Source: Eledone cirrhosa (lineage: Eukaryota). From it: 64,000 nucleotides of DNA. Made by a program: the position numbers and the translations under genes. Positions 19,994 to 20,188 of the stretch are shown here, piece after piece. The stretch covers positions 46,810,001 to 46,874,000 of the forward strand of contig OZ024751.1 of assembly GCA_964016885.1 (NCBI GenBank), read 5' to 3'. The notes under the pieces are model-generated. The model did no database searches, was not told where the DNA came from, and was given only the letters and a program-made list of their open reading frames with translations. How positions within the stretch are numbered: position 1 is the first letter of the stretch; the number at the start of each line of letters is the position of its first letter.

Positions 19994-20188
19994 TAGGAAC
20001 GAGTAGGACCCCGACGGCTGAGATCAAGCCGTTTCGACGGCTAATTCTGGACTCGAATTAGCCGTCGAAACGGCTTGAGCTCAGCCGTCGGGGTCCTACT
20101 CGTTCCTATTACCCACTCTACTACCCTAAGTATTGAGTACTTTGGTGCGTTATGGTCCATCTGGTTCCTTACCACATTTCCTTCGTTT
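19994..20188 (+). mobile_element. Family A fold-back element
   Basis: Full hairpin around the loop TGGACTC plus ~85-bp tail, in (TA)n. Confidence 0.88.

Follow-up and report, generated by a model that had tools for sequence, protein, structure and literature searches.

Introduction

The standard signature of Penelope insertions is a 5'-truncated copy in inverted orientation that carries a tail of 30-40 bp on one side, for which PMC8557442 (Craig et al. 2021) invokes resolution by an endonuclease. The Hydra clade, as characterized in the same text, combines a C-terminal endonuclease (EN+) with the motifs DKT and RW(K/R), a CxCX5C linker and CxxC/CxH, lacks CCHH, and inserts into (TA)n. For Poseidon_Ac (PAc), PMC11167929 (Frangieh et al. 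2024) describes a protein that cleaves both target strands, extends each of them and initiates at two internal sites bounding the tail. In Adineta vaga, an inverted Penelope pLTR with a tail was read as self-priming on an antisense template (PMC3846280; Arkhipova et al. 2013). PMC8557442 calls for an in vitro system, and PMC11167929 leaves the later steps unvalidated.

Here we analyse a family of short, two-armed repeats, family A, from the 3.0-Gb, microsatellite-rich genome of Eledone cirrhosa. A related process is the twin priming of LINE-1, reportedly described by Ostertag and Kazazian in 2001, in which each of the two target ends primes on the same RNA and microhomology links the resulting cDNAs into a 5' inversion; the second primer is said to anneal at variable internal sites, and the arms to barely overlap. 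In family A, by contrast, the second site has a constant position, and the overlap of the arms usually extends along all of their length. In the literature open to us, with subscription journals mostly outside its scope, we found no published proposal of two-site double priming for Penelope elements.

Results

Two-armed copies in the window

The window, by which we mean the whole 64-kb stretch of DNA that was analysed, contains the nine copies listed in an earlier note on this sequence. In each of them the inverted arm ends at ...TTCC/CTCC|TAT and then meets (TA)n, as had been stated, with the copy at 63698 off by one base; the unpaired tail, put there at about 85 nt, has a length of 79-82 nt. 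Arm coordinates are given relative to the inner of two fixed ends, site 1, with window position 20109 as 0. The copy at 19993-20188 begins with (TA)n, followed by an inverted arm of 62 nt and a forward arm of 134 nt that includes the unpaired tail, and ends with (TA)n. Its tail-less arm (19993-20054, minus strand) extends from -61 to site 1 and ends in the TAT shared with the left (TA)n target tract (19977-19995), while the tail-bearing arm (20055-20188, plus strand) runs from -54 through the tail to site 2 and is followed by the right (TA)n target tract (20189-20514), neither tract being assigned a strand. Site 1 (TAT, 20107-20109, plus strand) is internal to the tail-bearing arm and would be the inner start of reverse transcription. 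The tail occupies the 79 nt between both fixed sites (20110-20188, plus strand) and carries bulged hairpin 1 at 20115-20138 (plus strand), arranged as ACTC-stem-loop-stem-2 nt-GAGT. By eye, the segment at 20055-20094 (plus strand) was recognized as the 3' half of a hammerhead-like motif of type I (3' strand of stem II, GAAA, stem III), with a putative cut between 20089 and 20090.

The remaining copies vary this plan. At 4438-4588 (plus strand), a tail-less arm reaching to -61 meets a tail arm that starts at -13 with 3-nt microhomology at the join, and the arms overlap by only ~13 nt, so that this copy is hardly a hairpin. The copy at 26614-26881 (plus strand) has an 80-nt foreign insert at the junction, that at 31890-32098 (plus strand) a templated 11-nt duplication at the junction and arms that differ at two polymorphic sites, and that at 35833-36042 (minus strand) a filler of 16 nt. 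Two copies, at 30743-30935 and 32913-33083 (both minus strand), belong to an older subfamily; in the latter, the tail-less arm is 11 nt longer upstream and a small deletion adjoins the site in the tail-bearing arm. The turn is symmetric at 53912-54110 (minus strand), and the copy at 63698-63817 (plus strand) is a palindrome centred on the putative hammerhead cut. Four single arms are also present. One, at 4742-4880 (minus strand), ends at site 2. The other three belong to site 1: the arm at 10154-10214 (minus strand), flanked by (TA)n on either side, ends at it or near it, and those at 35046-35105 (plus strand, likewise flanked by (TA)n on either side) and 43201-43243 (plus strand, TA-rich flanks) end at it.

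The 64-kb window holds no intact family-A ORF, and a Pfam scan of six window ORFs matched no family. A 467-codon stop-free frame at 17508-18911 (minus strand) is not a simple repeat and is without Pfam match. A palindrome at 44392-44951, whose loop-free 280-bp arms are 95% perfect, lies between (AT)n tracts; it is unrelated to family A and has no visible tail.

Family A belongs to a Penelope-like element with Hydra-clade motifs

Family A almost certainly represents the pLTR and tail at the end of a Penelope-like retroelement that bears Hydra-clade motifs, the copies being 5'-truncated insertions, because the upstream extension of one copy, a tandem unit, structure matches of the reverse transcriptase (RT) and the Hydra motifs all lead to this assignment. 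The copy in question (L032, tail-bearing) runs upstream via 1.2 kb of non-coding DNA into a frame with GIY-YIG motifs. Used as a query, it gave 133 scored matches of 94-100% identity, including a tandem array with a period of 3,531 bp. The 3,531-bp unit contains a frame of 784 codons (716 aa when read from its first Met), site 1 at 1205-1207 and site 2 at about 1284-1287, ~95 nt ahead of the first ATG.

The structure predicted for the protein has a pLDDT of 93.6, and structure searches with this model returned telomerase RTs as best matches (Foldseek E 1.8e-8; Z 17.2, rmsd 2.9, 265 aligned), RTs filling the lists of matches. The element thus has a single ORF with a telomerase-related RT, whose FDI, MG and YRDD motifs are 97-100% conserved at key residues. 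Neither the full 716-aa protein nor a 295-aa fragment matched a Pfam family, and PDB sequence searches with the element protein gave no significant match. The GIY-YIG-type domain that had been predicted for the family is present, as judged by motif only: VIY...YIG is followed by R616, H620, E675 and N688, each conserved in 97-99% of 117 relatives. This endonuclease is C-terminal, DKG is changed to DKT (SDKTGN at 115-120), and RWR is found at 36-38, with K in 71% of relatives. The CxCX5C linker corresponds to C571-C573-C579, C669xxC672 and C697xH699 lie either side of E and N, and CCHH is absent from the endonuclease, which has one non-conserved C between VIY and YIG. Insertion into (TA)n, typical of the Hydra clade, was observed, as were the general Penelope features of tandem or partial-tandem copies forming pLTRs, an inverted 5'-truncated copy and a one-sided tail, with 28 two-armed composites.

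Compared with the Hydra clade as described in PMC8557442, family A has in common the order of RT and GIY-YIG, DKT, RW(K/R), CxCX5C, the lack of CCHH, (TA)n and the inverted one-tailed copy. It differs in its unit of 3,531 bp, as Hydra elements are generally <3 kb, in a tail of 79 nt rather than 30-40, and in a putative hammerhead core with A at position 8. The hammerhead flanks listed in that text for Hydra-1_Obim do not match those of family A, and two family-A motifs were not found in the available supplement text (Files S1/S2) of PMC8557442. Family A is a new family, whereas the kind of element and its insertion architecture are already published.

The family is young, with units 99.9-100% identical and frames intact, and it is abundant: blind samples contain ~42 tail-bearing arms in each Mb, or roughly 125,000 copies by extrapolation. 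At E<=1e-10, 2,215 of 7,998 scored candidates were relatives. A sequencing-run search for the family listed no RNA data set containing it. One single insertion (G000:C1:437,198,045-437,214,409; L122-L124) comprises 4.5 tandem units, 99.9-100% identical, with an inverted arm of 287 nt, an array that points to a possible multimeric or circular RNA template.

A canonical hammerhead ribozyme in the pLTR is among the traits of the Hydra clade. The putative core of family A, identified by eye, has a type-I layout with (U/C)UGAGAA and A at position 8; 138 matches carry U3 and 51 carry C3, overlapping loci not being removed from these counts. Rfam gave no match at E<=1 on the pLTR region. In the core at unit 1093-1103 (L123), position 8 is A throughout; the U3 of the youngest subfamily would restore the 3-8 pair, which the older subfamily, with C3, would lack. 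In the window copy at 63698-63817, at L089:8562 and in L135, arms start at or a few bases from the putative hammerhead cut, including the perfect palindrome centred on it, hinting that cleaved RNA may be copied.

Both ends of the tail are fixed

Arm ends were counted by hand in a sample of 1.054 Mb, made up of 79 stretches picked by place, 20 neighbours and the window, and holding 117 arms. Among the 57 site-1-class arms, 49 end at site 1 to within 1 nt, seven end 2-7 nt off and one is interrupted by another insertion. In the 60 tail-bearing arms, the end falls within 1 nt of site 2 in 44 cases, within -3 to +6 in 12 and inside the tail in four, and none of these arms extends past site 2. The outer (tail) end is as fixed, and as internal to the element, as the inner one. 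The tail is therefore an interval bounded by two fixed sites and does not constitute a natural 3' end.

In exact-pattern counts over the whole genome, 12,407 matches from the younger subfamilies stop at site 1, compared with 25 and 52 for two further TATs within the tail, a ratio that is approximate as the patterns differ in degeneracy. This bears out the proposal that the inner end is programmed. At site 2, 10,908 exact-pattern ends were counted on the plus strand alone, the minus-strand count being inflated by overlapping matches. A TAT is common to element and (TA)n target at each end. However, the 3,531-bp unit has 72 TAT trinucleotides, and TA homology alone thus does not pick the site. 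The sequence CCTA^TTACCC, which the earlier note had put forward, is not a shared recognition sequence beyond TA(T): in other families of the same layout in the genome of study, site sequences and tail lengths differ. At least ten such families (L068, L077, L093, L091, L159, L095 and others) show an inverted arm and a fixed tail of about 44-120 nt between (TA)n.

A bulged hairpin lies behind each site

Each site is located 6-7 nt ahead of a bulged hairpin. The strict hairpin pattern occurs exactly twice in the unit, 78 nt apart, and is absent from the antisense strand; hairpin 2 lies just past site 2 and is missing in truncated copies. Among relatives with ~40% protein identity, at least one hairpin is found within 300 nt of the ORF start in 19/45 and two in 6/45, this set consisting of those 45 of 77 loci in which the match reaches the N-terminus. 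In the controls, the pattern occurred in 29/4,500 shuffles, 0/45 antisense sequences and 1/45 ORF interiors. The claim of a hairpin rests on this conservation because the folding z-score of hairpin 1 (-0.5 to -0.9) is unremarkable; that of hairpin 2 is -2.9. A second family in the genome of study has the same hairpin pair behind its two ends. In several other tailed families, an ACTC...GAGT hairpin lies behind the inner end.

We consider it likely that the two fixed ends represent two start sites of reverse transcription on the element RNA, one for each 3' end of a cut (TA)n, and that this double priming takes place mostly on one RNA.

The two arms are probably copied from one RNA

Partner arms differ by 0-0.95%, and in 23 of 28 long composites by less than the median difference to other copies, the exceptions being M1, L125, L131 and L255, with L259 counted as less. 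Private variants, up to 8, are common to both arms in 14 of the 28 composites, suggesting that both break ends were probably primed on one RNA, although such shared variants fit fold-back or gene conversion equally well. Pairing between the sites is close to obligatory: the blind pairs combine a tail-less with a tail-bearing arm in 45 of 48 cases (site-1/site-1 in two, site-2/site-2 in one), and 27 of the 28 long composites have one end at each site. Both near-obligatory pairing and shared private variants follow if the two cDNAs are made on one RNA.

Twin priming from two RNA molecules, supplied by two RNPs or by a dimer with two RNAs and usually stemming from the same source locus, is an unlikely alternative. 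It would yield overlapping arms without any need for strand displacement, and a few short copies do carry different polymorphic tags on their arms, namely those at 31890 and 53912 in the window. Independent RNAs should, however, choose their sites freely, which disagrees with the pairing seen within the family, and none of the 28 long composites has arms of clearly different subfamily haplotypes. Head-to-head joins of a family-A arm to an arm of another family, at five loci (L141, L244 at 7583-7810, L253, L256 and L257), would also fit two RNAs. The partners are other TA-targeting Penelope families. In L253:3387-8113, an arm of 3.77 kb from a second Hydra-like family (protein identity 36%) directly meets a long, young family-A arm, each ending at its own site 1. 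The partner family in L257 has a different linker, of a Neptune/Nematis-like zinc-finger type. Such joins are found in every site combination and could be either two-RNA events or deletions between neighbouring insertions.

Arm asymmetry argues against fold-back as the main route

Arms start 50-66 nt upstream of site 1 in 62 of 100 cases and in all subfamilies, and many single arms start there too. The turn, described in the earlier note as variable and stochastic, does vary, but is clustered in this interval and at a recurrent junction, and is thus only partly random. One junction type occurs 1,652 + 1,127 times genome-wide. In 50 scorable loci out of 60, the commonest junction is present in both polarities (28 vs 22) and spans many subfamily tags and haplotypes; the junction at 19994 mirrors the one in L005.

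The 50 blind short pairs consist of 45 of the 48 BLAST pairs, three same-site pairs being left out, and five recovered from singles; arm extents are reference-based, and 9 of the 50 rows were corrected by hand. In this set, the tail-less arm is longer by at least 10 nt in 18 pairs, shorter in five and within 10 nt in 27 (P=0.011). Among the 28 long composites, which were chosen by search and not blind, the tail-less arm is longer in 12, shorter in 15 and neither in one; incomplete, single, chimeric and complex loci were left out, including L127, L132, L133, L135, L137, L141, L253, L256-L258, L260 and L261. In four very young long composites (L247, L248, L250 and L252), the tail-less arm continues upstream for 267-1,296 nt that are absent from the partner, with no internal tail and with 0-2 differences in the 1,079-2,093 nt that the arms share. 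Tail arms start between -13 and +20 in 9 of the 50 blind pairs; in three, they start at +17 to +20 and are nevertheless joined to a site-1 arm, and in a fourth at +3. Tail arms from +3 to +20 cannot be made by fold-back or loop inversion without deletion. By hand count, seven single arms end at site 1 and eight at site 2. Partnerless site-1 ends, site-1/site-1 pairs, the arm asymmetry and the occurrence of both polarities together suggest that site 1 behaves as a start in its own right.

These data bear on the possibility that one cDNA from site 2 folds back, copies itself to a nick or block at site 1 and joins the other target end, with the exceptions due to later loop inversions and deletions. 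This is in essence the model of the earlier note, and it comes close to the self-priming described in PMC3846280. Several observations are in keeping with such a course. Turns within 2 nt of symmetric are in excess, with 19/50 where stops made independently of each other would give 8-10 (P about 1e-4; the excess holds within subfamilies too), and this requires either a shared RNA 5' end or real fold-back. Junction centres are palindromic, a feature taken as self-priming in PMC3846280, and the arms are near-identical with common private variants. In addition, 316 fragments consist of tail only and follow (TA)n from site 1 onwards, consistent with either a stall or a nick at that site. However, fold-back predicts that the tail-bearing arm is always longer upstream, and loop inversion would even this out to 50:50 at most, whereas the blind pairs deviate in the opposite direction. 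The four young composites violate the same rule by 267-1,296 nt, tail arms that begin downstream of site 1 are joined to site-1 arms, site-1 ends exist singly and as pairs, and the hairpin context of site 1 is the same as that of site 2. The idea that the fixed end is a nick or second-strand joining site on a folded strand is therefore not upheld, and we regard this course as quite improbable for the family as a whole. Fold-back-and-nick is probably a minor route at most: short true snap-backs are present at the 5' ends of L128, L141 and L257, a minority of insertions are likely true snap-backs, and some copies of 'wrong' polarity could stem from later inversion of the loop between the arms, or from deletion.

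A foldback DNA element (MITE-like), or pre-formed hairpin masters moving as a unit, can be dismissed as highly improbable, since the junction type that recurs so often, and the similar arm lengths of most short copies, are set against the occurrence of that junction in both polarities across many subfamily tags (copies do not derive from one master, as had been anticipated), arms of 11 nt to 16 kb that are continuous with an RT-coding element, and ends that lack matching terminal repeats and are instead different sites of that element.

Junctions in the long composites show microhomology of at least 3 nt (3-7) in 11 of the 22 filler-free cases versus 6% by chance, and fillers in 6 of 28. In one short two-armed copy (L170:9310-9586), 138 nt resembling the element's own ORF lie at the junction, suggesting a possible template jump. 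At L252 and L116:1132-1330, both outer flanks read outward as one sequence, which implies that an older inverted repeat had the target (TA)n at its centre.

Discussion

How might two start sites give rise to one hairpin-like insertion? In the double priming on one RNA that we favour, the endonuclease would cut both strands of (TA)n, and each free end would pair with the UAU adjoining a hairpin, the hairpin positioning the RT. Both cDNAs would then be extended upstream, usually on one RNA. The RTs of Penelope-like elements are not known to have RNase H. With two primers on one RNA, the trailing cDNA must displace the leading one: the cDNA from site 2 would displace that from site 1 or stall near site 1, and the nine blind tail arms starting from -13 to +20 may represent failed displacement, stalled at the other primer. 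Both cDNAs would tend to stop 50-66 nt upstream, where the RNA would have its 5' end or a structure that stalls the RT, or else at the putative hammerhead cut. The 3' ends of the cDNAs would be joined head to head by 0-7 nt of microhomology or by filler, and second strands would be made by host repair. A shared RNA 5' end would account for the symmetric turns, in line with the cluster of starts at -50 to -66 and with the palindrome at 63698; true snap-back would account for them as well.

Of the described systems, PAc offers the nearest parallel for two starts. According to PMC11167929, it resembles family A in having two internal sites that bound the tail, an AT-rich target, a stem-loop at the start region and, upstream, a hammerhead, which is putative in family A; both target strands are cut and extended, as proposed here. 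It belongs to another clade, however, and starts inside the ORF, whereas the sites of family A lie upstream of the first ATG. Its start sites are reported there as non-homologous to the cut DNA, while those of family A, placed from genomic ends alone, share TAT with the target. Furthermore, in the sections of that text considered here the two sites are not proposed to yield both arms of one head-to-head insertion. The Adineta vaga insertion (PMC3846280) has the head-to-head inverted copy and the junction palindromes in common with family A, its tail measuring 31 bp on one pLTR. The reading given there is self-priming, whereas the arm asymmetries of family A favour two primed cDNAs as the main route.

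The published signature of Penelope insertions and the two-site starts of PAc are joined by the family-A data into double priming. The counts obtained for family A discriminate between fold-back and double priming, and a small RNA signal is named by the analysis. Whether the scheme applies to Hydra-type elements in general is a proposition to which we give about equal weight for and against: in such a programmed form of double priming, a single RNA would carry a tandem pair of bulged hairpins, each docking a telomerase-like RT, both ends of the cut (TA)n would prime, and the trailing cDNA would displace the leading one, with the stop near -58 corresponding to the RNA 5' end and rare two-RNA events fusing families. 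If this is true, one rule accounts for the tail and the inverted pLTR as well as for the large number of short palindromes. Double priming would make a large class of hairpin repeats in this genome retro-insertions, not DNA transposons.
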